A DNA stretch of 43,736 nt, taken from a virus. Below are positions 3,734 to 41,207 of the stretch, piece by piece. The translations under genes were made by a program, and so were the position numbers. Below the pieces are notes generated by a model. It worked only from the letters and a program-made list of their open reading frames with translations, was not told the origin of the DNA and did not search any database. The stretch is from the UHGV virus genome UHGV-0197631; one strand, given 5' to 3'. Each line of letters opens with the position of its first letter. The stretch's first letter is position 1.

Positions 3734-4089
3734 TACTGGTAATCCCCTTCTTCACCGTGGAACTCAAGATCAACCGTCCCTTCTTCGGCATTATGGTTTG
3801 CTTCGCCGTGCAGCCAGGCAGACGACAGTACATAGACCTGACCGTTCGCCAGCTCGGCTGTGATGGTCATCTCATCAGACGAGGTGATTTTGCTCACCGG
3901 AAAATTCTTCGGCACCTTGAAGGTCCCTTTAACATAAGGCGCACGGTGAGTTTCCTTGCGGTCCACTGAACCGTCCAGGCCGATGATGTCATCATTGACC
4001 GTCCTGTTCATGGGCACCTCAATGCCGCCGGTCAGCGATAGCTGCTGACCGTCAATTTTGAAATAACAGGTTCCCCCGATACGGGCCAT
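3733..4089 (-). CDS. contractile tail tube protein
   Basis: 118 aa, immediately downstream of sheath gene with start/stop overlap; size and position typical of Mu/P2-type tube. Confidence 0.65.
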   Translation of the reverse strand: MARIGGTCYFKIDGQQLSLTGGIEVPMNRTVNDDIIGLDGSVDRKETHRAPYVKGTFKVPKNFPVSKITSSDEMTITAELANGQVYVLSSAWLHGEANHNAEEGTVDLEFHGEEGDYQ

Positions 4090-5585
4090 TATGCGGACTC
4101 CTCTGAATACTGAAGACGGAACTGGTTAACCACGGCAAAGACACGCAACTGGTTAACATAGTCAGGCGGGAACAGCGTGTTCAGGCGGTTCGGATCGCTG
4201 GCATCACGCTCCACAACCAGGTACTGCTTAAAAAGTTCGTAGTTTTCCACGATCCCCGCACGCTCAAGCTGACGGTAGGTTGCCAGCAGTTCCCCTTTGA
4301 TCACCGCCGGGGTGACAATCGCCTGACCGGGACCAAAGCGGGTACCGTCGCTGGCAAGCTTGTGACGCCCGTACTTACTGGTAATGACGGATTTCAGTTT
4401 GCGCAGTACATACGCACTGGTATGCAGCGTCTCGCTGTCGAGGTAGCTGTTATCCGCAACCCCGTAAGCGTTTTTCCTGTACGTGGTGACATCACGCTGA
4501 ATGCGCAGTACCCCGCTTTCGACATACGCCGTTGCCACGCCATGAGACAGCAGGGTCTGTTGTTCGGTCATCGTGAACCGTTTCCCCTTCGGCGCAGGCA
4601 GCATACCCACCAGCTCACCGGTCTGCGTGGGACGTGCCGGATCGTTGCGGATAAACACCGCTGCGCGGGCGGTACGGCTTGCCGCCAGCTCGTCGGCAGG
4701 CGTCTGGGTCTCTTTTTCGTACCCCGCCAGGGTAATGTGCTGCTGGTTAAACTGGTCACCTGCGGTCACCAGTTCTGACAGCGTGCCGATCTTTGCCGTA
4801 TACACATGACCATACAGCTGACGCGCATAGCTCCAGCGACCGCTGGTATCGTTCATCTCGGTCACCAGCGTGTTAACGGAGGCCGTGTCGTTGAACGGCA
4901 GGCCGATATAATCAAACGGCTCATCCGCCATTGCAGCCACCGCGCCGGTGAGAACCGGAGCACCCGTTCCGGCGGTACCCGTCGCCACGGCAATCTGTAC
5001 GCCCGCTGGCAGCACTTCGCCCCCACCAAAGCCGTAGTAATTGAGGCTGACAGGAATTTCATTCCCGCAAAGCCCCTTATGGCGAGCGGTCAATGTAACC
5101 ACACCAGCCGAAGATGAGGCCGTAAACGGCAGGGCCGGAACGGCATTGATGGCATCTTTGATACTGCTGGCAATCGTCGCGACGTTATCGCCGTTGGTCA
5201 GCGGTGCCTGCACGCGGGTACGTCCCACATAAACATTCACCGTGCCGGTTTCGGTTGCTGCCCCGGTCACCGTCAGCGTAACTGTTGCCGCCGCGCCTGT
5301 GGATTCAGGAACGGCAATCACATACAGCTCGCCAAACGGGTCAGTCTGGCGATAAGCCTCGACCATACGCGCCAGCTGACTTCCCGCACCACAAATCTGG
5401 CGTGCATAGTCTGCCGACGGCATCAGTACCAGACTGTTGGCAACAATCTCTGCACCGTTATTGGCATGACCAATCAGCAGCGATGCTCCGCTGTCCTGTG
5501 CAGTATTCGCCGCCTGGTTATCCATTTCCGCATAAAACAACGGAACCAGCGTATTCGACGGAATGGTGTTAAAGCTTATCGTCAT
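4089..5585 (-). CDS. contractile tail sheath protein
   Basis: 498 aa; position and size; Gly/Thr/Ala-rich composition typical of myovirus sheath proteins. Confidence 0.75.
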   Translation of the reverse strand: MTISFNTIPSNTLVPLFYAEMDNQAANTAQDSGASLLIGHANNGAEIVANSLVLMPSADYARQICGAGSQLARMVEAYRQTDPFGELYVIAVPESTGAAATVTLTVTGAATETGTVNVYVGRTRVQAPLTNGDNVATIASSIKDAINAVPALPFTASSSAGVVTLTARHKGLCGNEIPVSLNYYGFGGGEVLPAGVQIAVATGTAGTGAPVLTGAVAAMADEPFDYIGLPFNDTASVNTLVTEMNDTSGRWSYARQLYGHVYTAKIGTLSELVTAGDQFNQQHITLAGYEKETQTPADELAASRTARAAVFIRNDPARPTQTGELVGMLPAPKGKRFTMTEQQTLLSHGVATAYVESGVLRIQRDVTTYRKNAYGVADNSYLDSETLHTSAYVLRKLKSVITSKYGRHKLASDGTRFGPGQAIVTPAVIKGELLATYRQLERAGIVENYELFKQYLVVERDASDPNRLNTLFPPDYVNQLRVFAVVNQFRLQYSEESA

Positions 5586-13785: not shown

Positions 13786-14310
13786 CTACTTCGTCATCAT
13801 TTTACTAAGTTCCTGAGGAGTCAATTCCCATGTAATAAACCGAGAAGACTCCAAAACATCATCTTCTCCGAGCAAGTATTTACGTATATTATTCATGAAG
13901 ACCCTATAATCTGGGGCATCATTCTTGTGCGACAGAATTTTAGACAATTCCGTTGCTAGATCAGCTGGTAACCATAAAAAAGCCTCATTTGTTAATTGTC
14001 TTAATCTTTTTCTGTCATATGGATTTGTCATCCATTCAGACATAAGCTCGGCAATTAATGCCGACTTCATTCTTATCTCATGTTGCCTTTTTTGCTTATC
14101 CAGAATAACAGTGTTTGCTGTTTTTATTGTTTCAAGCATAACATCGTATTCATGCTTGACTGCATTCTGCACAGTGCTTTGTAGCCAAGTTCTCCCAATA
14201 AAAAACATTAAAGGGAGTATTACAACCCAAGCGATTACATTTGCTATCCAACCAGCGTCCATATCTATCCTCATGAAAATAAAAATAATTAACACACAAG
14301 CTGTTAGCAT
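13786..14310 (-). CDS. AT-rich moron: membrane-anchored protein of unknown function
   Basis: 174 aa; N-terminal hydrophobic helices; markedly lower GC than flanking phage genes; between lysis cassette and HNH. Confidence 0.5.
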   Translation of the reverse strand: MLTACVLIIFIFMRIDMDAGWIANVIAWVVILPLMFFIGRTWLQSTVQNAVKHEYDVMLETIKTANTVILDKQKRQHEIRMKSALIAELMSEWMTNPYDRKRLRQLTNEAFLWLPADLATELSKILSHKNDAPDYRVFMNNIRKYLLGEDDVLESSRFITWELTPQELSKMMTK

Positions 14311-14321
14311 ATAACATTATT

Positions 14322-14579
14322 TCAATGATTACTTCTTTTGCTTTCTATTTTGCGGATTGCAACTTTATCTTGATTACATTGATTTAATGCTGATAACAAA
14401 TTCACATTCAAATCAAGACTTGCACCATACGTCAGTGGGTCGGGTATAAACGGTACAGGAGTATCAGAAGTCAAGCTGACTGGTAGTGGTGTATTCGGAA
14501 TGCTCACGTAAACTGTTCGCGTACTTCCGCAACCTGTCAGCAGCGGCAGCAGGTACAGGACGGGCAGCACAATCATCAT
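14322..14579 (-). CDS. o-spanin Rz1 (outer-membrane lipoprotein), out of frame within and beyond Rz
   Basis: Begins MMIVLPVLYLLPLLTGC (lipobox LTGC), proline-rich mature part; start at ATG 14579 inside the Rz gene in a different frame, extends past the Rz stop. Confidence 0.65.
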   Translation of the reverse strand: MMIVLPVLYLLPLLTGCGSTRTVYVSIPNTPLPVSLTSDTPVPFIPDPLTYGASLDLNVNLLSALNQCNQDKVAIRKIESKRSNH

Positions 14580-14856
14580 CCGCAACAGCCACTTTGATAT
14601 CTTCCTGGGTTCTCTGTGACTCCAGTGCGATCTGCTGTTTTGCATGCTGGTTAGCCTCCAGAACAGTATTGACGATTTGCATTGATTGCAGGACGTTATT
14701 GGTAATGGCAGTTGCTGATTCAGCATTTCGTACAGCCTCATCAGCACGTTTCTTTTCGTGCTGATATTTGCTGTAGTAGTGGTTAGCAGACCAGATGAAA
14801 GAACCGATGACAATAAAGAAGAATGCAGCGATAACCAGCTTATAGCTCAACTTCAT
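14464..14856 (-). CDS. i-spanin Rz
   Basis: 130 aa, N-terminal TM helix followed by coiled-coil; immediately downstream of endolysin. Confidence 0.75.
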   Translation of the reverse strand: MKLSYKLVIAAFFFIVIGSFIWSANHYYSKYQHEKKRADEAVRNAESATAITNNVLQSMQIVNTVLEANQHAKQQIALESQRTQEDIKVAVADDDCAARPVPAAAADRLRKYANSLREHSEYTTTSQLDF

Positions 14857-15316
14857 TTACCACCCCACCAGCATCTTTAAACATGGAAATCAGGTCACCG
14901 ATTTTATGTTCATACTGACCGTAACCTGCACCAGGTAACGACGCCCAGATATTGCTGCAACGGTCGATTGCCTGACGAATATCGCCACGGTCAATCATCG
15001 GTAAAGCGCCACGCTCTTTAATCTGCTGCAGCGCCACAGCGTCCTGACTTTCTGGCGAAAAATCTTTCAGGCCAAGCTGCTTGCGGTAGGCATCCCACCA
15101 GCGTGAAAGAAGCTGATACCGGCCTGCGGCTGTTGATTTAAGCTTCGGGTTTAGCGTGACAAGTTTGCGAGGGTGATCGGAGTAATCAGTGAAGAGTTCG
15201 CCACCGACAATAACGTCATAACCGTGGTTACGTGTCGGTTGTCGCCCGTTATCCGTTCCTTCTGACCAGGCCACCATATCCAGGAAAGCTTTACGCTGGG
15301 GATTTAGTTCCTGCAT
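14840..15316 (-). CDS. R: endolysin, lambda R-type lytic transglycosylase
   Basis: 158 aa; near-identical over most of its length to my recollection of lambda R (NQRKAFLDM.AWSEGTDNGRQ.TRNHGYDVIVGGELFTDYSDHPRKLVTLNPKLKST.AGRYQLLSRWWDAYRKQLGLKDFSP). Confidence 0.9.
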   Translation of the reverse strand: MQELNPQRKAFLDMVAWSEGTDNGRQPTRNHGYDVIVGGELFTDYSDHPRKLVTLNPKLKSTAAGRYQLLSRWWDAYRKQLGLKDFSPESQDAVALQQIKERGALPMIDRGDIRQAIDRCSNIWASLPGAGYGQYEHKIGDLISMFKDAGGVVNEVEL

Positions 15317-15319
15317 AAA

Positions 15320-15670
15320 TTACTCCTTCGAGCTACCAAATTTGTTACCGATTACTCGCATTGCAGCCCCACGAATAGCATCGACACCGATCAACCCAAC
15401 GCCACCACCAATGGCAACAGAAAGCGATTTAGGCCATCCGACATACTCAAGAGCGGATGCAAAAGTCAGCGTCAGAGCGCCGCAGAGCAAAATCTCGAGC
15501 GTTTTTCGCTTCCAGCCACCACCACCGCCAAAATAGGCAATGCGCAAGCCAGCCATAACGATCGACATAATTACTGCGCCCAGCGGTGTGTCTCCACGCC
15601 ACCAGCTCTGTAACAATTCAAGTAAGTCAGACCAGGAATGAGGATCGTTATGCATTTTCATAATTCCCAC
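15320..15670 (-). CDS. holin (possible dual-start holin/antiholin)
   Basis: 116 aa with hydrophobic helices; N-terminus MGIMKM offers alternative Met starts; directly upstream of endolysin. Confidence 0.65.
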   Translation of the reverse strand: MGIMKMHNDPHSWSDLLELLQSWWRGDTPLGAVIMSIVMAGLRIAYFGGGGGWKRKTLEILLCGALTLTFASALEYVGWPKSLSVAIGGGVGLIGVDAIRGAAMRVIGNKFGSSKE

Positions 15671-15750
15671 CTCCGGTTATCGGAAGTGCAACGAGTGAAG
15701 GGAAAGAAGCTGGTTATAGCGCTGAGTCGCAAAAGATGCGTAGTGCACAA

Positions 15751-15780
15751 AAAAGGCCGCCCACAGGCAGCCTCTTTTTA
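15751..15780. terminator. stem-loop followed by T-run (intrinsic terminator-like)
   Basis: GGCCGCC cacag GCAGCC stem (one mismatch) flanked by A-run and T-run; between the Cys-rich ORF and holin. Confidence 0.35.
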
Positions 15781-15792
15781 TAATTCATTGAG

Positions 15793-16035
15793 TTAACAAC
15801 ATTTAAATGCTGGTGGTATAGAAGGTTTTTCACCAGAACGGCAAGCCGGACACCATGACTGAACGATATGCCTGCCGTCTCCCATATCCCTATAACCAAA
15901 GTCTATTGTTTTATAAAAAACGTGCACTCCGGCATCAGCAGAACATTTTGGGCAAGATTTATATTCAACGCCATCTTGTTCAACTTCTCGTGAATAACTT
16001 AATGACTGCTCACAAACAGAACAACGCTCCACCAT
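15793..16035 (-). CDS. small Cys-rich (zinc-ribbon-like) protein in the Q-holin moron slot
   Basis: 80 aa with CxxC, CPKC, CPAC pairs; located downstream of the tR'-like terminator where lambdoid phages carry morons. Confidence 0.4.
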   Translation of the reverse strand: MVERCSVCEQSLSYSREVEQDGVEYKSCPKCSADAGVHVFYKTIDFGYRDMGDGRHIVQSWCPACRSGEKPSIPPAFKCC

Positions 16036-16190
16036 ATATGCTCTCCTGTTTTTGATAGAGATTTATGGGTAGCAATTCCATTCAAAAGAAACATTGAAGG
16101 GTGTCACTTTTTCAAAATGAGCGTAGCTGGCTGCCAGTTTTTTGTACAACACACTTTAAGGAAGGAGAGCCTTAAAAACACAATTGACAT

Positions 16191-16220
16191 CAATAAAAAA
16201 CCGCTCGGTGGCGGTTTCTT
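16191..16220 (-). terminator. tR'-like intrinsic terminator of the late leader transcript
   Basis: Minus-strand AAACCGC caccga GCGGTTT stem followed by TTTTTTATTG; lies ~100 nt downstream of the Q gene end. Confidence 0.5.
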
Positions 16221-16323
16221 GAAGATTATCAACGGTAGACACACAAAGCCCATCGTTAGGGAAATCCTAACCATATTTTTTGAAAAATGCAAGCATCATG
16301 TCGCTATCTTCGGCGAAAATTAC

Positions 16324-17076
16324 TTATCTCGTCACCTTTCTCAATTGTGCTTCAGCGTAAGATTCCTCCTGCCAGCACTTTGTAACCAGTTTATCAATGA
16401 CATTTGCATATCCTTTGTACCACTGATAATCAGTCAGGTCCGGTACCAGCTTCTGGACATGATTCCGCGCCAGTGTGGTTGGTAAACGGCTAAACCGGTT
16501 TCCATTGCAACGCCCACAAATCTTATAAACAGGCGTGCCATGAAGCCGGGTTCTTTTTTCATCCAGAACAATACCTTTACCCTTACACCCTCTGCACGCT
16601 GTGCTGACTTCTCCCTTACCATGACAATGCTGACATAGTTCCTTCACCCACTCTTCCTTGATAACAGATTCCCCGCTTCTGGAGTGTTTCACCACTTCGC
16701 GCAATACATTATGAAATCCAGTACCAGCACAATGCTCACAGCGAGCCTTACTTGCCGCAGACCTGGAATAATCAGCAAAGGCAAAATTCACAAGGTAAGG
16801 GATGATCTGTAACCGGGTTTCTTCACTCAATTTGTTCAATGTCGGGTTATCCAGTGCCATCGCGTAATTGAGCAGACCTTCAATCGCAAACTGAGGATCC
16901 TGAACACCAACTTTTGCCAGAAATAAGGCAAACCCAAGCGGTGCTTTCGACTGCACCATCCCCTGCGCAGCCATCACATCCGTAATTGTTAAACCACCAG
17001 AGCCTGTCGCCGGTGCGTCATCGCTCAGTTTTGGAGATTTCGGGGAGTAATATTTCGGTAAGGCTTCAAGGTTCAT
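16324..17076 (-). CDS. late-gene antitermination protein Q (Qin QuuQ-like, Cys-rich zinc-binding type)
   Basis: 250 aa from MNLEALPKYYSPKSPKLSDD; multiple CxxC/HCHGKG motifs; GGAGA Shine-Dalgarno 7 nt upstream of ATG 17076; position before lysis genes. Confidence 0.75.
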   Translation of the reverse strand: MNLEALPKYYSPKSPKLSDDAPATGSGGLTITDVMAAQGMVQSKAPLGFALFLAKVGVQDPQFAIEGLLNYAMALDNPTLNKLSEETRLQIIPYLVNFAFADYSRSAASKARCEHCAGTGFHNVLREVVKHSRSGESVIKEEWVKELCQHCHGKGEVSTACRGCKGKGIVLDEKRTRLHGTPVYKICGRCNGNRFSRLPTTLARNHVQKLVPDLTDYQWYKGYANVIDKLVTKCWQEESYAEAQLRKVTR

Positions 17077-17089
17077 GCTCGTTCTCCAC

Positions 17090-18085
17090 TTACGCCAGCA
17101 CGCCAATTGCCAGCGCACGATCGATAAAACGAAATATCAGCTCCAGCTGGGAGCCATACTTCTCTTCAAATGCCACGGTATCCGCATGCAGCTCGTCGTG
17201 ATGCTTTCTGCACAAAGGCAACACAAAGAGGTCATGCGCTTTTGTACCCATTCCCCCCTGACCGTGGCCTATCAGGTGGTGGGGATCATCAGCTGGCTTT
17301 CCACAACATGCACACGGCTGTGTCTTAACCCAGCGCGTGTACTTTTCATTAACCCAGCGGCGACGTTTTGGGCGTAACATAAAAGACTCCGGCGACTCCG
17401 GATCCACTTTCAGCGCCAGCACCTTTTTCGCTTTATCCTGGATAATGCTGGTGGCAGGAACCGAAGGAACAAGGTCACTCTCCCGGGTGACAGACGGCAC
17501 AACAGGCTTCGGTAATCTCAGTGCCTTACGGGCTGCACTTTCCGGTAAGGCATCCGCCAGGTCATTACGAACCAGCCACCAGCACAGTTCCGGCATTGTC
17601 ACAACGTGACTGTCATCAAAACCGAGATCACGGCGCACAACAGATAACACCCAGCGGGCACAGTTATCCGTTGCCATTGATTCCAGCCCTTCCGTGAACT
17701 GATCGCGCAACTGGTTATCGCAGTGCCAGCACAGACGGATTGCGCCCGGAGCGTGCCGCATTGTGGTCATGTTCTCGCTGTGCCAGTCGGAATGAGGCCA
17801 CTGGCAGCCTTTTTCACGAAGTAACCAGCTTTCAAGACATTCCACGCCACCAGCACGACGGATCACTGCCTCATTGCGGAACACGGCCCGAACGGCAGGA
17901 TCATCCGCCAGCGGTTGTGATGCCGCCGGAACGGCACCACTGGCGAAAGATGAATAACGTTCCGGCTCAGGCTCCAGCAGGACACGCCCCTGCATAAACA
18001 GGGGCATCAGCTCTGAACCTGGCCTGAACAATACGATCCCCATACGCGGGGCAATTTCAGGGGTCAGTAGTGCTCTCACGGTCAC
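17090..18085 (-). CDS. DUF968-like prophage protein with C-terminal Cys/His nuclease-like motif
   Basis: 331 aa; C-terminus CACCGKPADDPHHLIGHGQGGMGTKAHD...LCRKHHDELH; adjacent to Q as in Qin-type prophages. Confidence 0.55.
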   Translation of the reverse strand: MTVRALLTPEIAPRMGIVLFRPGSELMPLFMQGRVLLEPEPERYSSFASGAVPAASQPLADDPAVRAVFRNEAVIRRAGGVECLESWLLREKGCQWPHSDWHSENMTTMRHAPGAIRLCWHCDNQLRDQFTEGLESMATDNCARWVLSVVRRDLGFDDSHVVTMPELCWWLVRNDLADALPESAARKALRLPKPVVPSVTRESDLVPSVPATSIIQDKAKKVLALKVDPESPESFMLRPKRRRWVNEKYTRWVKTQPCACCGKPADDPHHLIGHGQGGMGTKAHDLFVLPLCRKHHDELHADTVAFEEKYGSQLELIFRFIDRALAIGVLA

Positions 18086-19624: not shown

Positions 19625-20278
19625 TCATGCCGCCATCTCCCTGACCAGTTTTTCCGCCTGCTGGCGAACCTGCGCCAGAAAGGCCTCACCACATGCCTCA
19701 AGTTCATCGCGCCCGATATAGCTGATTGCCGATCCCTTCCAGGTCTTATCGAAAACAGCAATAGCACCAGCGAAGAAAGCGCCTGTCGGCACCTGCTTCT
19801 CATCCTTCGGGATAAACCAGACAGGCAGTTCAAAACCAATACGCCCGCGAATAAAAGCAATATGGTCTGCATCTTCCGGCCACCACACTTCGCTGGTGGC
19901 AGCTTTGATCAGGAAAACATAACGCCCGCCCTTATCACGCATGGCACTGGCATGTTTCATGATGTAACGCATGCCGGTGATGTATTGCCCCTCATGCTGA
20001 CTGGCGCGGCTGTATGGGGGATTACCAAAGGCAGCACCTTTAAGCTCCGCAAGACGTTCTGACCAGTCATGCGCCAGCGCGTTGTCTTCCGCCGTGTAAT
20101 ACGCAGCACATTTGGTGTTATCACCGTCAGTGAACAGATCCAGAACAAACGGGCCAAACAGGGTGTTAATTCCCCAGAAAATGTTGTCCGGCGTGCGCCA
20201 CTGATCGCCCACTTCCTTCAGTTCATGGGCTGGTTTGTTCCGCAGTTCCACCAGCGCCTGGCAATATTTATTACTCAT
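19625..20278 (-). CDS. phage N6-adenine DNA methyltransferase (Dam-like, orphan)
   Basis: Contains NPPY-type motif (FGNPPY); start set at MSNKYCQ (ATG 20278), which overlaps the upstream stop as TAATG; no cognate nuclease adjacent. Confidence 0.7.
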   Translation of the reverse strand: MSNKYCQALVELRNKPAHELKEVGDQWRTPDNIFWGINTLFGPFVLDLFTDGDNTKCAAYYTAEDNALAHDWSERLAELKGAAFGNPPYSRASQHEGQYITGMRYIMKHASAMRDKGGRYVFLIKAATSEVWWPEDADHIAFIRGRIGFELPVWFIPKDEKQVPTGAFFAGAIAVFDKTWKGSAISYIGRDELEACGEAFLAQVRQQAEKLVREMAA

Positions 20279-28347: not shown

Positions 28348-28697
28348 TGGAGCCATACAGCCTCACACTCGATGAGGCCTGTCATTTTCTCAAGATATCC
28401 AGACCGACTGCCATTAACTGGATACGCACAGGGCGTCTTCAGGCAACACGCAAAGATCCCACTAAGAATAAATCTCCTTACCTCACAACACGACAAGCCT
28501 GCATTGCGGCTCTTCAGTCTCCGCTGCATACTGTCCAGGTGAGCGCGGGTGATGGCATAACAGAGGAAAGAAAATGTCACTCTTCCGCAGAGGTGAAATA
28601 TGGTACGCCAGTTTCACATTGCCGAACGGTAAAAGATTTAAACAGTCTCTTGGAACAAAGGACAAAAGGCAGGCGACAGAACTCCATGACAAGCTAA
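28347..28697 (+). CDS. xis: excisionase-like HTH protein (Xis)
   Basis: [33 protein letters not shown] is an HTH_17/AlpA-Xis type motif; AGAGGTG Shine-Dalgarno upstream; ORF overlaps the int start, so the true C-terminus is uncertain. Confidence 0.5.
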
Positions 28698-29737
28698 AGG
28701 CTGAAGCATGGCGGGTCAGCAAACTTGGTGAAATACCTGATATAACGTTCGAGGAAGCGTGTGTCAGGTGGCTTGAAGAGAAAGCACATAAAAAATCACT
28801 GGACGATGACAAAAGCCGGATCGGATTCTGGCTTCAACATTTCGCAGGAATGCAACTAAGAGACATTACTGAATCAAAAATTTATTCAGCAATGCAGAAA
28901 ATGACGAACCGGCGTCATGAGGAAAACTGGAAACTCAGGGCAGAAGCATGCAGAAAAAAAGGGAAACCTGTTCCAGAATACACGCCAAAACCAGCGTCCG
29001 TTGCAACGAAGGCTACGCATCTTTCATTTATAAAGGCCCTACTAAGAGCCGCAGAGCGTGAATGGAAAATGCTGGATAAGGCACCAATTATTAAAGTGCC
29101 TCAACCAAAGAATAAACGGATCCGCTGGCTGGAGCCCCATGAAGCACAAAGGCTGATTGATGAATGTCCGGAGCCATTAAAGTCTGTTGTTGAATTTGCA
29201 CTGGCAACAGGCTTAAGACGCTCGAACATCATCAACCTTGAATGGCAACAAATAGATATGCAGCGCCGGGTGGCATGGATAAACCCGGAAGAGAGTAAAT
29301 CAAACCGCGCAATTGGCGTTGCGCTGAATGATACTGCATGTCGCGTATTGAAAAAACAAATCGGGAATCATCACCGTTGGGTATTTGTGTACAAGGAAAG
29401 CTGTACCAAACCAGACGGAACGAAAGCGCCAACAGTAAGGAAGATGCGGTATGACGCAAACACAGCCTGGAAAGCGGCGCTGAGACGGGCTGGTATTGAT
29501 GATTTCAGATTTCACGACTTGAGACACACCTGGGCAAGTTGGCTGGTTCAAGCCGGAGTCCCGTTGTCAGTGTTACAGGAAATGGGAGGCTGGGAGTCTA
29601 TCGAAATGGTTCGTCGATATGCTCACCTTGCACCTAATCACCTTACCGAACACGCACGGCAAATAGACTCGATCCTGAACCCATCGGTCCCAAATTTGTC
29701 CCAGTCAAAAAATAAGGAAGGTACAAATGATGTGTAA
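28574..29737 (+). CDS. int: tyrosine integrase (lambda-type)
   Basis: 387 aa; catalytic-region motifs ([10 protein letters not shown] ... RRYAHL); ends 14 nt before the tRNA-Thr-derived att core. Confidence 0.85.
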
Positions 29738-34361: not shown

Positions 34362-35336
34362 CTACAGAAGACGAATTAACTCTTCCCGTGAAATCCTGCG
34401 ACGATGTACCTCATCATGGCAAACATTACAGAGAGTAATTAAGTTATCCAGTGTATTTTCTCCGCCATCAGCATGATGTTCAATATGATGTAACTCGAGG
34501 AATGTTCTGGGGTCATTTGCGATTTTACGGGCATGAGACCAGTGGCAGTGCCTGCATGCATGATGGTCACGCTCAAGTACAGCGACACGTACAGGATCGG
34601 GGATCTTTCGGTCATGCACTTCAGCCTGTCGATCTTCCTCGAGTAAATAAGCTCCGACTTCTAGCTCCGGTCTACCGGAATTTTTGGTGGCGATTGGCCA
34701 GCCATCTTCTGTACGTAGCTCACGTGTTCGTCGCGCCCACTCCTTGCTATCGTTTGCAAGGTATCGTAGTTCTTCGCCAGTCACGGGACGGCCAACGTTC
34801 TTACGCAGATAAGACAGAATTTTATCTTTCGTGGAGATTTTGCTTCGTCTGAGGACATTAGCTTCATTCCACCGCAGAGCTGCTTCCCTGTCCTGTTCTG
34901 CTGTCATCAGCGCATAAACGTCGGTTTTAAGAACGTTAATCGCACTGGCATGGAGCTCTTCCAGTGTAACCTCTCCTTGTTCGATCATTTCCTTCAACGT
35001 AGTGCCGCTTAATACGGACCAACCAAACTGCACACGCAGCTCTCTGATCCTTCTGGCATATTCACTGATACCCGCAACAACCATCAGTTCGTCACCATGG
35101 ATGATGACGCCGGGATATTTGAGTAAATAAGCCAGAATTCGGTCACGGGCTGAATTGCAATTCTCATCATTCATCAAAGAACTGCCTAAATCCCGCAGCA
35201 AATGATTGGCGGGGATTAATGCCAAAACCTGTTCCCGTAGGGAATCATCCTTGAGCTTAAACTCAAAGTCGGTAATCAACGCCAGAAGCTGTTTACGCAG
35301 CGTTTCCGGTACGCTCTTCTTCGATCTTCTCGCCAT
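34362..35336 (-). CDS. HNH endonuclease with tandem N-terminal repeat domains (putative restriction endonuclease)
   Basis: C-terminal HNH motif (HHACRHCHWSH...ELHHIEHHADGGENTLDNLITLCNVCHDEVH); two similar internal segments (EYARRIRELRVQFGWSV / EWARRTRELRTEDGWPI); overlaps the methyltransferase gene by 44 nt. Confidence 0.65.
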   Translation of the reverse strand: MARRSKKSVPETLRKQLLALITDFEFKLKDDSLREQVLALIPANHLLRDLGSSLMNDENCNSARDRILAYLLKYPGVIIHGDELMVVAGISEYARRIRELRVQFGWSVLSGTTLKEMIEQGEVTLEELHASAINVLKTDVYALMTAEQDREAALRWNEANVLRRSKISTKDKILSYLRKNVGRPVTGEELRYLANDSKEWARRTRELRTEDGWPIATKNSGRPELEVGAYLLEEDRQAEVHDRKIPDPVRVAVLERDHHACRHCHWSHARKIANDPRTFLELHHIEHHADGGENTLDNLITLCNVCHDEVHRRRISREELIRLL

Positions 35337-36423
35337 TTTGAATTAGGTATTCCATTAAATTGAGAACGTAGGTCGCAATCTTCTGCGCAAAAACTGGTGG
35401 TACTGCATTGCCAATTTGCCTTGCGATTTCGGTTTTTGAACCCACAAAAACAAATTCATCCGGGAAACTCATCAGGCGCGCGGCTTCACGATGCGTAATT
35501 GGACGATGTTGCTCTGGATGTAGATAACGCCCCTTCTCAGGCTTAAAGAACTCCGTGCGGATCGTGACAGAAGGCCTCTCCCACCACAAACGGCCAAACA
35601 AATCCGTTCCACCCGAGGTTTTTTTAATCCAGCAGGCAGGGGTAATGTCAGGTCTATTCTTTTGCAAATCAAACCGGTTTCCCCCTACCGGAACAGCTCG
35701 GTAGCGTTCCTGCGAAAGCGCAGTTGGATTTCGACCAAAGTGGAGATCTAATGGGGGTGGAAGATCACGCACCTCAGTCCCAACCGGCTCAGGCAAATCA
35801 CCTATAAAATCTCTGACTGTCAGCCAGGCTGGTAGATCCGCCCCCTTATCAGGATTCTGGTGCGACTGTACAGGTGGGAACGTTGGGATGCTATTCAGCA
35901 GGAATCGCTCTTTTTTAATTCCAATTGCAATAGCACGTTTGCGCGTCTGCGGAGCCCCGTAGTCGGCTGTGTTAAGGACAGAAGGATTCAGAAGCAGAAA
36001 ACCCATGCTTTCAGCACGAGCACAAATGTCCTGAAATTCATCACTGGACAAGAGGCCCGGAACATTTTCCATCACAAATACAGAAGCAGAAGACCTCTCA
36101 ATGATATCCATATACGGCTCCCAGAGCGCCCGTCGATGGTCCCTTTCTCGGTTCTTGTTGAGCAGGCTGAATCCCTGGCATGGCGGGCCGCCGATAACAA
36201 TATCAGCCTCAGGAATGCTGTTTTCAGCAATCCACTCTTCGATGTTCGCTACAATGCCATGCTCGCCAAAGTTGGCATTGTATGTACTGATAGCCGCCTT
36301 GTCATTGTCCAGAGCTAGGACGCTTTCAAAATGAGCGCCATTTTCCCCCTTCATGAAGCCGCAGGATAAACCGCCAGCGCCACAAAACAGATCAATGACT
36401 TTTAATTTATTGATTTTACTCAT
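35293..36423 (-). CDS. DNA (cytosine-5)-methyltransferase
   Basis: Motif I FCGAGG, motif IV PPCQGFS, ENV motif; 376 aa. Confidence 0.85.
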   Translation of the reverse strand: MSKINKLKVIDLFCGAGGLSCGFMKGENGAHFESVLALDNDKAAISTYNANFGEHGIVANIEEWIAENSIPEADIVIGGPPCQGFSLLNKNRERDHRRALWEPYMDIIERSSASVFVMENVPGLLSSDEFQDICARAESMGFLLLNPSVLNTADYGAPQTRKRAIAIGIKKERFLLNSIPTFPPVQSHQNPDKGADLPAWLTVRDFIGDLPEPVGTEVRDLPPPLDLHFGRNPTALSQERYRAVPVGGNRFDLQKNRPDITPACWIKKTSGGTDLFGRLWWERPSVTIRTEFFKPEKGRYLHPEQHRPITHREAARLMSFPDEFVFVGSKTEIARQIGNAVPPVFAQKIATYVLNLMEYLIQNGEKIEEERTGNAA

Positions 36424-39678: not shown

Positions 39679-39773
39679 CCTAACAATAAACCTGTTTAAA
39701 TATCCAGATAAAAACATTCAATCTGGGTCAAATGAGTGATACAGTTTCACCCATAAGACCCAATGGAGGCAAT

Positions 39774-41207
39774 ATGTCTGAATTTGAATTACTGGCGCAG
39801 GATCTGCTTGAGAAAGCAGAAGCGGAAGAACAACTGCGACAGGAAAATGATAAAAAGCTGCTCGGGCAGGTGCTGGAAATCTATGACCAGAAGTACGTGG
39901 CTGAACTGCTTAGAAAAGTTGGTAAAAATGAGTGGAGTCGCGAGACTCTTAATCGCTGGATTAATGGTAAGTGCTCACCTAAGACGCTGACGTTAGCCGA
40001 AGAGGAACTTCTACGAAAAATGCTTCCGGAAGCGCCTGCACATCACCCTGACTATGCCTTCCGGTTTATTGACCTGTTTGCTGGGATTGGAGGTATACGG
40101 AAGGGCTTCGAAACCATCGGTGGCCAGTGCGTTTTTACCAGTGAATGGAATAAAGAGGCTGTGCGCACATATAAAGCTAACTGGTTTAACGATGCTCAGG
40201 AACACACTTTCAATCTCGATATTCGGGAAGTCACGCTCAGTGATAAACCTGAAGTACCTGAAAACGATGCCTATGCTTACATTAATGAGCATGTGCCGGA
40301 TCATGATGTACTTCTAGCAGGTTTCCCCTGTCAACCGTTCAGCCTTGCGGGCGTAAGCAAGAAAAACTCGCTCGGGCGCGCGCATGGTTTCGAATGTGAG
40401 GCTCAGGGAACGCTTTTCTTCGATGTGGCGCGTATTATACGCGCAAAAAAACCTGCCATCTTTGTTCTTGAAAACGTTAAAAACCTGAAGAGCCATGACA
40501 AGGGTAAAACCTTTAAAGTCATCATGGATACCCTCGACGAACTGGGCTATGAAGTTGCGGATGCAGCTGAGATGGGCAAAAACGATCCTAAAGTTATCGA
40601 CGGAAAGCACTTTTTACCTCAGCACCGAGAACGTATCGTTTTGGTCGGTTTCCGTCGTGATCTGAACATTCACCAGGGCTTTACCCTGCGCGATATTAGT
40701 CGTTTTTATCCGGAACAGCGTCCGTCATTTGGCGAACTGCTGGAACCCGTGGTTGACAGCAAATATATACTGACGCCGAAACTCTGGGAGTATCTCTATA
40801 ACTACGCCAAAAAGCACGCAGCTAAGGGTAACGGATTCGGTTTTGGCCTCGTTAATCCTGAAAATAAAGAAAGCATTGCCCGTACGCTTTCTGCTCGCTA
40901 TCACAAAGACGGGTCTGAAATTCTGATAGACCGTGGCTGGGATATGGCCACAGGTGAAACAGACTTCGCGAACGAAGAAAATCAGGCGCATCGGCCCCGC
41001 AGGCTGACTCCACGAGAGTGCGCGCGCCTTATGGGTTTTGAAAAAGTAGATGGCAGGCCTTTTCGCATTCCTGTGTCAGACACTCAGTCGTACAGGCAGT
41101 TCGGTAACTCCGTAGTGGTGCCCGTGTTTGAAGCCGTAGCCAAACTGCTTGAACCTTATATCCTGAAAGCGGTTAATGCCGATTCGTGCAAGGTTGAACG
41201 AATCTGA
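39774..41207 (+). CDS. ecoRIIM: EcoRII-type DNA (cytosine-5)-methyltransferase (Dcm-like, CCWGG specificity inferred)
   Basis: From [12 protein letters not shown] with GGAGG Shine-Dalgarno; motifs FAGIGG, PCQPFS, ENV; collinear with E. coli Dcm and with M.EcoRII as I recall it. Confidence 0.85.

Follow-up and report, generated by a model that had tools for sequence, protein, structure and literature searches.

UHGV-0197631 is a virus genome of 43,736 nucleotides (nt), hereafter the window, whose sequence is that of an E. coli prophage with a 99.9% identical locus in E. coli strain SW070919. Our interest is in the interval between its antiterminator gene, Q, and its holin gene, which holds a small cysteine-rich open reading frame (ORF) of 80 amino acids (aa); we refer to the ORF and its product as ZnR. 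Read along the minus strand, the order is Q, a putative late promoter, a pause element, a first terminator, a leader, the 80-aa ORF, a second terminator, holin, endolysin, Rz and Rz1 (Table 1). In SW070919 the locus is annotated as KilA-N, DUF968, Q (ydfT), a hypothetical protein, holin, GH24 lysin, Rz, Rz1, HNH and terminase. An initial annotation, made from the sequence of the window, had described two hairpins and the ORF between Q and the holin gene, and all of these elements, together with both flanking genes, were found on the minus strand where it had put them.

Table 1. Positions of the late-region features and of the early methyltransferase gene in the window
Feature	Position	Strand	Basis and detail
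Q antiterminator, Q-lambda family	16324..17076	-	PF03589 E = 3e-54; DnaJ_CXXCXGXG E = 3.5e-7; start and stop from PGAP
PR'-like late promoter	16264..16292	-	-35 TTGCAT (16292-16287), 17-nt spacer, -10 TAGGAT (16269-16264)
Sigma-dependent pause element, AACGAT then GGG (AACGATGGG)	16249..16257	-	9-mer identical to lambda; AACGAT at 16257-16252
tR'-type intrinsic terminator	16195..16217	-	AAACCGC (16217-16211), loop CACCGA, GCGGTTT (16204-16198), T-run to 16195; folding, compensatory change in relatives, annotation in SfV and Ayreon
Leader of cargo module, 159 nt, GC 0.365	16036..16194	-	Hairpin TTTAAGG/CCTTAAA (16176-16155); Shine-Dalgarno sequence AGGAG (16047-16043)
ZnR, 80 aa, predicted two-zinc protein, WP_001306866.1	15793..16035	-	PHROG 7682; annotated hypothetical
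Second intrinsic terminator, of the ZnR module	15749..15772	-	GGCTGCC/TGTG/GGCGGCC (15772-15755), then T6 (15754-15749); folding, homologous hairpins in Q21-family loci
Holin S, lambda-like M-K-M dual start	15320..15661	-	PF05106 E = 5e-28; PGAP 'phage holin, lambda family'
Endolysin R	14840-15316	-	PGAP annotation of the 99.9% identical E. coli locus
Rz	14464-14856	-	Same PGAP annotation; DUF2570 match
Rz1/LysC, embedded	14307-14579	-	PGAP annotation of the 99.9% identical E. coli locus
N6-adenine methyltransferase, early region	19628..20278	-	PF05869 Dam E = 4e-45; tblastn 98% identity to the phiSTEC1575-Stx2k enzyme

The Q-proximal part of the interval is laid out like the late cassette of phage lambda. 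A Q of the PF03589 family lies upstream, a -35 hexamer, 17-nt spacer, -10 hexamer and 6-nt gap lead into the sigma-dependent pause element (SDPE), an intrinsic terminator stands between the pause and the late genes, and these follow as S, R and Rz, with a holin that has the M-K-M start. The late promoter was assigned by ungapped placement of the lambda PR' sequence against the window, which gave TTGACT-17 nt-TAAATT-6 nt-AACGATGGG for lambda and TTGCAT-17 nt-TAGGAT-6 nt-AACGATGGG for the window. The spacing is equal and the pause element is the same 9-mer, 6 nt from the -10 hexamer in both; 33 of 62 positions are identical, most of them between the -35 hexamer and the GGG, and the promoter region is nearly invariant in phages SfV and Ayreon. 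The hexamers of the window are weaker than those of lambda (7 of 12 consensus positions versus 9 of 12), and the putative PR' is identified by homology, not by consensus strength. By analogy with lambda, transcription is predicted to start at the A at 16257 and to give a leader RNA of ~63 nt (about 61-64) that reaches to near 16195, unlike the late leader of lambda (6S), which is ~194 nt long. A further difference from lambda is that a protein-coding module and a second terminator lie between tR' and S.

The Q protein itself matches the lambda Q structures 7UBM (E = 5.5e-38) and 4MO1 (E = 3.9e-25), and differs from lambda Q in an expansion related to the CXXCXGXG zinc finger of DnaJ, at about residues 120-190 of 250 aa (PGAP names the gene ydfT). 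In lambda Q, a single zinc-ribbon 'arm' touches the Q-binding element and region 4 of sigma. The place of that arm is the place of the expansion in the Q of the window (PMC9388147). The logic of such cassettes (Q, PR', SDPE, terminator, late genes), with processive read-through over kilobases, and the role of the pause element in them are covered by the same work (PMC9388147).

A simple promoter and terminator scan missed PR' and both hairpins, the latter, we think, apparently because it runs the stems on into the A and T tracts beside them. Our promoter and terminator calls are instead based on RNAfold folding against 200 shuffled sequences and on purpose-made scans, which recovered both hairpins. 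The stem of the first hairpin begins 107 nt past the stop codon of Q (16324), and its fold (-11.9 kcal/mol, z = -3.6) was equalled by none of the 200 shuffles. In SfV and Ayreon the stem carries a compensatory A>C/T>G change, and the records of both phages annotate the counterpart as a terminator. As a block that reaches from the 3' end of Q to tR', PR' included, this region is 87.6% identical in SfV, 15 Stx2c phages, phiSTEC1575-Stx2k, mEp460 and Ayreon, and the similarity to SfV and Ayreon ends directly after the T-run of tR', which places a mosaic junction at the 5' end of the leader. Past this block the cargo differs from phage to phage, being stx2 with tRNAs, a DNA methylase or other small ORFs, and in each of these phages further terminators precede the holin gene. 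The window shares with the Stx2 phages, SfV and Ayreon a known cargo slot made of the Q/PR'/tR' block, a break after the T-run, terminator-bounded cargo and then the lysis genes, and differs from them in the cargo, which here is the 80-aa zinc protein. With the hairpin at the expected site, lambda PR' geometry and AACGATGGG upstream of it, and the same block preceding stx2 or other cargo elsewhere, the reading of this element in the initial annotation as a tR'-like terminator is sound.

The hairpin before the holin gene folds still more stably (-19.6 kcal/mol, z = -4.8, 0 of 200 shuffles as good), 88 nt upstream of the start of the holin gene. This intrinsic terminator belongs to a conserved module of ZnR: homologous GGCTGCC..GGCGGCC hairpins followed by a T-run lie 3' of the gene in 15 of 21 non-redundant prophage loci whose Q belongs to the Q21 family (PF06530), with compensatory variants that include GGCTCGC..GCGGGCC and GGCTCAC..GTGGGCC. 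Where it is absent or weak, the following gene is mostly that of an N6_N4 methyltransferase. At the other end of the module, the leader of the window aligns with the Q21-family leaders from the TTTAAGG/CCTTAAA hairpin onward, and the Q21-type element further upstream is replaced in the window by the lambda-type PR'-tR'.

The leader hairpin (window 16155-16176, minus strand; L007 ~3850-3885; L016 ~4890-4925) covaries, as TTAAG..CTTAA versus ATAAG..CTTAT, and is kept in the window despite the different promoter module upstream; in one locus (L106) it is followed by a T-run. A separate tendency was seen within the ~150 nt before the ATG of homologues, where the Shine-Dalgarno (SD) sequence of ZnR tends to be paired (mean probability 0.82 versus 0.64 in shuffles; L005, L013, L015, L016, L021, L022, L099, L102 and others), often through a local CCTTGCTA..TAGCAAGG hairpin. 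An SD-sequestering structure was not adopted for the window, where the SD sequence has a pairing probability of 0.52 versus 0.77 in shuffles.

The ORF has CxxC pairs at residues 5/8, 28/31 and 62/65, plus C79 and C80, and an AGGAG 7 nt before its ATG. Of the 20 clusters that a homologue search returned, 19 have lengths of 78-80 aa and the other is cut short at 55 aa. Those aligned with the protein of the window, 19 in number, are 55-98% identical to it, with C5, C8, C28, C31, H38, C62, C65 and C79 invariant, and dN/dS was 0.09-0.18 in comparisons with unsaturated synonymous changes. ZnR matches PHROG 7682, for which no function is annotated, from end to end (E = 7.2e-60, with residues 1-80 aligned to profile positions 1-80). 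As comparison shows, the Cys-rich ORF with three Cys pairs of the initial annotation is a real, conserved gene, whose predicted product is under purifying selection. The ORF is nonetheless left unannotated in several complete E. coli genomes (RefSeq loci H29-H31, H34, H35, H57 and H59) whose DNA is at least 97.5% identical over the wider interval.

The module is rare and its composition deviates from that of its surroundings. It was found in 24 of 5,426 complete E. coli genomes, while a wider query matched in ~1,100 E. coli genomes, mostly with only its Q/PR'/tR' part, and tblastn with the ZnR protein gave no match in 50,697 deposited phage genomes. Its GC content is 0.40 versus 0.51 for the prophage, and ZnR has a GC3 of 0.26 versus 0.45-0.49 in Q, S and R. 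Judged by its low GC, the sharp break in homology and its private terminator, ZnR is a mobile module. A classical moron carries its own promoter. In the 159-nt leader (16036-16194) a promoter scan found no site matching at 8 or more of 12 positions, and one at 7 of 12 where 3.7 were expected by chance. Since no promoter of its own was detected, transcription of ZnR should require Q, save for what leaks past tR'. The earlier description of the gene as a Q-dependent moron consequently stands in part: the gene is putatively Q-dependent cargo with its own terminator, deviant composition and absence from close relatives, but it lacks a detectable promoter and is not a sporadic insertion, since it recurs between Q and the lysis genes.

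This recurrence extends well beyond the window. In 25 IMG/VR loci of the window type and ~40 other enterobacterial prophage loci, ZnR comes after Q and before the lysis genes, all on one strand, whether Q is of the Q-lambda or the Q21 family and whether the holin is of family 3_1, 2_1, 8 or 3_7. The lysis genes follow ZnR directly or past further cargo, and other cargo lies mostly between Q and ZnR; ZnR itself is often 85-130 nt before the holin gene. In the Q21-family prophages a conserved element, TAACGCGTACGCAAAAACTATCGTAA-CTGTTAAGAGTGGTC (also written TAACGCGTACGC...GTTAAGAGTGG), stands 133-156 nt upstream of the ZnR ATG and begins exactly at the onset of inter-phage similarity. It is separated from Q by reverse-strand cargo, which adjoins Q directly and in L005 overlaps it by 11 nt. 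A Stx1a phage (L010) has the same element, followed ~60 nt later by the terminator CCCGCCGATGCGCGGGTTTTTTT and then stx1. A terminator-like site was found in only one of 21 Q21-family ZnR leaders. The element looks like a late promoter that a cargo or defence hotspot has pushed 1-2 kb away from Q, and we infer that late promoter and Q-loading region of this Q family both lie in it. If it is the late promoter, ZnR precedes the first terminator and would be transcribed without Q in these phages.

Reverse-strand cargo between Q and TAACGCGTACGCAAAAACTATCGTAA..GTTAAGAGTGGTC was seen in Q21-family prophages, Stx1a phages and a Klebsiella phage (L005 1378-4000; L007 2084-4000; L009 510-4000; L010 1-2560; L011 795-2570), and includes RelA_SpoT with NA37, HEPN with GmrSD, and an M78 peptidase with a helix-turn-helix protein. 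The homologue in Photorhabdus (L024-L031, L034) is chromosomal, near SMR transporter, L-PSP and HipA-like genes, has no Q or lysis genes within 5 kb, and is followed by a long AT-rich hairpin instead of a GC-rich terminator.

To place ZnR among known proteins, we combined profile, structure and literature searches. A profile search of 1.8 billion representative proteins retrieved 289 relatives at E <= 0.001. PHROG 7682 does not extend to the wider cellular family. In an alignment of 56 diverse members C5, C8, K26, C28, P29, C31, S32, C62, C65 and R66 are invariant and L12, S27, H38, F46, G47, Q59, S60 and C79 nearly so, with H38 and C79 in at least 90%. The paired CxxC knuckles of a zinc ribbon are conserved across the family, and length and the eight ligand residues are kept across phyla. 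The eight ligands fit two predicted zinc sites, C5/C8/C28/C31 and H38/C62/C65/C79, or an alternative pairing. An AlphaFold2 model gives a confident small fold (pLDDT 84), for which Foldseek returned nothing at E <= 0.001 in the PDB or BFVD, and sequence and profile searches of the PDB gave nothing significant. ZnR has only sub-threshold matches to generic ribbons in Pfam and to an FmdB ribbon in NCBIfam, and no match in PADLOC; a literature search on the family under its various names and on DpnII-associated zinc proteins yielded nothing of relevance. ZnR belongs, in short, to a wide, uncharacterised family with two predicted zinc sites, for which Pfam has no entry. Assignments to Lar and YnfU were set aside, as the matches were sub-threshold and to generic ribbons (Lar, PF14354, in 5 of 56 family members, best E = 0.0019). 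A dead HNH finger was likewise rejected: hhalign gave 0.7% probability against HNH domains, and ZnR does not combine profile similarity to the HNH/beta-beta-alpha-Me nucleases with their catalytic His or metal-binding residue.

An indication of what ZnR may do came from its neighbours in other bacteria. We inspected 24 distinct, non-enterobacterial loci drawn from the 289 family representatives, and in 16 of them a D12 (Dam-class) methyltransferase gene lies no more than three genes away. Several have the layout of a DpnII-type restriction cassette. At L044 the order is D12 methyltransferase, a short ZnR, a DpnII nuclease (PF04556, E = 6e-112) and an N6_N4 methyltransferase; at L122 a D12-DpnII fusion is followed by an N6_N4 methyltransferase and ZnR; and at L041 ZnR adjoins a reverse-strand cassette of N6_N4 methyltransferase, DpnII and D12 methyltransferase. 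At L036, L037, L046, L048-L050, L112, L116 and L119, ZnR lies directly before or after a pair made of a D12 methyltransferase and a DUF6996-DUF6997-DUF7226 protein, and at L042 a fusion of ZnR, a middle domain and HNH takes the nuclease position between the D12 and N6_N4 methyltransferases. Short forms within DpnII cassettes have the FGYRDMGDGR..QS.C..CR core in common with the phage clade. In longer members of the family the ZnR domain stands before an HNH nuclease, after DndB or before NOV_C, and the HNH domain of the fusions resembles that of McrA. Adenine methyltransferase genes also adjoin ZnR in some enterobacterial prophages (L017, L018, L021, L022, L089, L101, L102). Since the cassettes share a Dam-class methyltransferase while their nucleases are of three unrelated types, we favour action at the DNA site or on the methyltransferase over action tied to a particular nuclease. 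The gene had been left without a function in the initial annotation, and this family link to Dam-class methyltransferases and DpnII-type cassettes narrows the field.

The DUF6996-DUF6997-DUF7226 protein, itself uncharacterised, is ~430 aa long and directly follows the D12 methyltransferase, at the place of the nuclease in DpnII-type cassettes. It has no PHROG, NCBIfam or significant PDB match, and a comparison with the middle domain of the HNH fusions found the two dissimilar. Possibly it is a restriction nuclease that has so far escaped recognition.

Taken together, these observations suggest the following course of events. In a first step, strongly supported as a whole by sequence homology, RNA polymerase would start at PR' and pause at AACGAT; without Q it would stop at tR' and yield the ~63-nt leader RNA, whereas with Q loaded at the pause it would ignore terminators. 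Only Q-modified polymerase would cross tR', transcribe ZnR, cross the terminator at 15772-15749 and enter S, R and Rz, so that ZnR would be the first protein-coding gene of the late transcript and not a self-contained moron. In Q21-family prophages the module lies directly behind the promoter-like element and is probably part of a leader transcribed without Q. The product, with its eight conserved ligands, is predicted to have two zinc sites. To judge from the gene neighbourhoods, ZnR outside prophages would be an accessory gene of DpnII-type cassettes, alongside a D12 methyltransferase, usually an N6_N4 methyltransferase, and a nuclease. The phage protein would then bind DNA or a methyltransferase without having a nuclease domain, and might respond to the methylation state. 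Made at the onset of late transcription, it would modulate adenine methylation of the replicating phage DNA or its exposure to restriction. We regard the proposal as a whole, which joins lambda-type late control by Q, Q-dependent cargo and a role in methylation or restriction, as evenly balanced between right and wrong. Its last step, a nuclease-free DNA- or methyltransferase-binding factor on the adenine-methylation and restriction axis, is tentative when taken by itself.

A more novel reading of ZnR goes further. ZnR would be an unrecognised, nuclease-domain-free component of GATC/Dam-type restriction-modification, which reads or sets methylation or controls the methyltransferase. On this view it would have been taken up by temperate phages of enterobacteria and set at the very start of their late transcript (in the Q21 family, in a leader transcribed without Q), where it would manipulate adenine methylation or restriction of the phage's own or of incoming DNA. 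We give this reading a probability of roughly one in four. The controller (C) proteins and the restriction-alleviation proteins Lar and Ral are likewise small accessories of restriction-modification genes or of prophages, and tune methylation against cleavage. The likeness is one of functional analogy only: C proteins are helix-turn-helix proteins, and Ral and Lar act on type I enzymes and are not known to be late genes.

Several points weigh against the main proposal. The arrangement of a DpnII-type accessory, with a D12 methyltransferase and a nuclease adjacent, which was found at 16 of 24 distant homologues, is absent from the window: no methyltransferase gene adjoins ZnR there, the only adenine methyltransferase of the window, the Dam-type PF05869 enzyme, being 3.6 kb away in the early region, and relatives without ZnR also carry this enzyme. 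At the remaining 8 of 24 distant loci, and at the Photorhabdus copies, there is no methyltransferase gene nearby. Methyltransferases are common cargo in the slot between Q and S (SfV, Ayreon), and their adjacency to ZnR in prophages could have arisen by chance in a hotspot that both use. That the associated cassettes are specific for GATC is deduced from family membership only, and a classical anti-restriction factor would not be expected so late in the cycle. Neither fold nor sequence comparison supplies a mechanism, and the protein of the window is near neutral or slightly acidic by a count from its sequence, which is atypical for DNA binders. As to the regulatory part, PR' is a weak match to the sigma-70 consensus (7 of 12 positions), and a promoter equally weak in front of the ORF could evade our scans.

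Next in rank, and unlikely in our view, comes the possibility that ZnR is a classical moron or lysogenic-conversion gene, expressed independently of Q in the lysogen, whether a weak promoter of the gene itself drives it or transcription leaks past tR', and serving the host, for example in defence against phages or plasmids. The own terminator, low GC and sharp mosaic boundaries suit such a gene. So does the Q21-family arrangement, in which ZnR between the promoter-like element and the first terminator would be transcribed free of Q if that promoter is constitutive like lambda PR', and in which the neighbouring cargo consists of defence genes (GmrSD, HEPN, RelA_SpoT with NA37); some family members, moreover, are fused to restriction-type nucleases. 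In the window, however, tR' stands between PR' and ZnR, the leader scan described above gave no convincing promoter, and ZnR has neither a PADLOC match nor an effector domain. Less probable again is an anti-restriction decoy, in which a free copy of a module of host nucleases would occupy DNA sites or poison complexes. That the domain is N-terminal in HNH nucleases, and that in L042 the fusion stands where a DpnII-like cassette has its nuclease, would fit a decoy, as would the co-occurrence with three unrelated nuclease types, which fits action at the DNA site better than action on one enzyme. Yet late, Q-dependent expression cannot shield an incoming genome, no restriction cassette with ZnR turned up in genomes of enterobacteria, and nothing points to packaging of the ZnR protein.

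Phage Mu offers a precedent of another kind in Com, a zinc-ribbon translational activator of the DNA-modification gene mom. Like Com, ZnR is a small phage CxxC...CxxC protein linked to adenine-modification genes, and some sources name its homologues 'phage FluMu protein Com'. ZnR might accordingly be an RNA-binding regulator of the adjacent terminator, the holin mRNA or a methyltransferase mRNA, which tunes late read-through or the timing of lysis. Its frequent position 85-130 nt before the holin gene and the paired SD sequences in homologue leaders are consistent with this idea, whereas in the window the SD sequence is, as noted, not sequestered. Membership of the Com family itself was rejected: hhalign gave 11.9% for the first ribbon only, and neither the protein of the window (E <= 0.1) nor five homologues, three of them labelled Com (E <= 10), matched PF10122, which Mu Com itself matched at 2.7e-9. 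Com lacks the second conserved metal site of the ZnR family and its FG.R...QS.C..CR core, and the link of this family across phyla is to restriction-modification cassettes that have nothing to do with lysis. We rank a Com-like regulator below the decoy, as doubtful. At the bottom of the order, nearly excluded, stands a functionless remnant, either an inactivated HNH-like fragment or a chance ORF. The lack of annotation in some RefSeq genomes would suit it, but the dN/dS values, the conservation of length and of the eight ligands across phyla and the 0.7% hhalign probability against HNH domains bring it close to refutation.

A few further features of the window were recorded. Two C5-cytosine methyltransferase genes, at 35293-36423 (minus strand) and 39732-41207 (plus strand), lie beyond the integrase gene (28574-29737) and hence outside the prophage; the second has a DNA_meth_N domain and may be dcm. 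Between Rz/Rz1 and the HNH and terminase genes is a 174-aa ORF (13786-14310, minus strand) with a hydrophobic N-terminal stretch and no Pfam match, where PGAP has a shorter hypothetical protein. An Rfam search of 15000-17500 gave no match at E <= 1. A search for GATC sites as a possible operator found none in 15700-16330 and no enrichment across the window.

The regulatory architecture of this locus is ordinary, indeed textbook, and provides a clean natural variant of the lambda cassette, in which the predicted leader measures 63 nt and the zinc arm of Q is enlarged. The more useful lead, of moderate interest, lies in the protein family and in where its gene is placed. In the Q21-family prophages, including Stx1a phages, the late-promoter-like element is split from Q by reverse-strand defence cargo, an arrangement that bears on the wiring of toxin and late genes. 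ZnR is a widespread, predicted two-zinc domain that recurs in DpnII-type cassettes and N-terminal to HNH nucleases, and that in phages would be the first late gene. If it does modulate adenine methylation or restriction, it would represent a new accessory class for restriction-modification biology, and would also account for a conserved prophage gene that is now annotated as hypothetical or not annotated at all.

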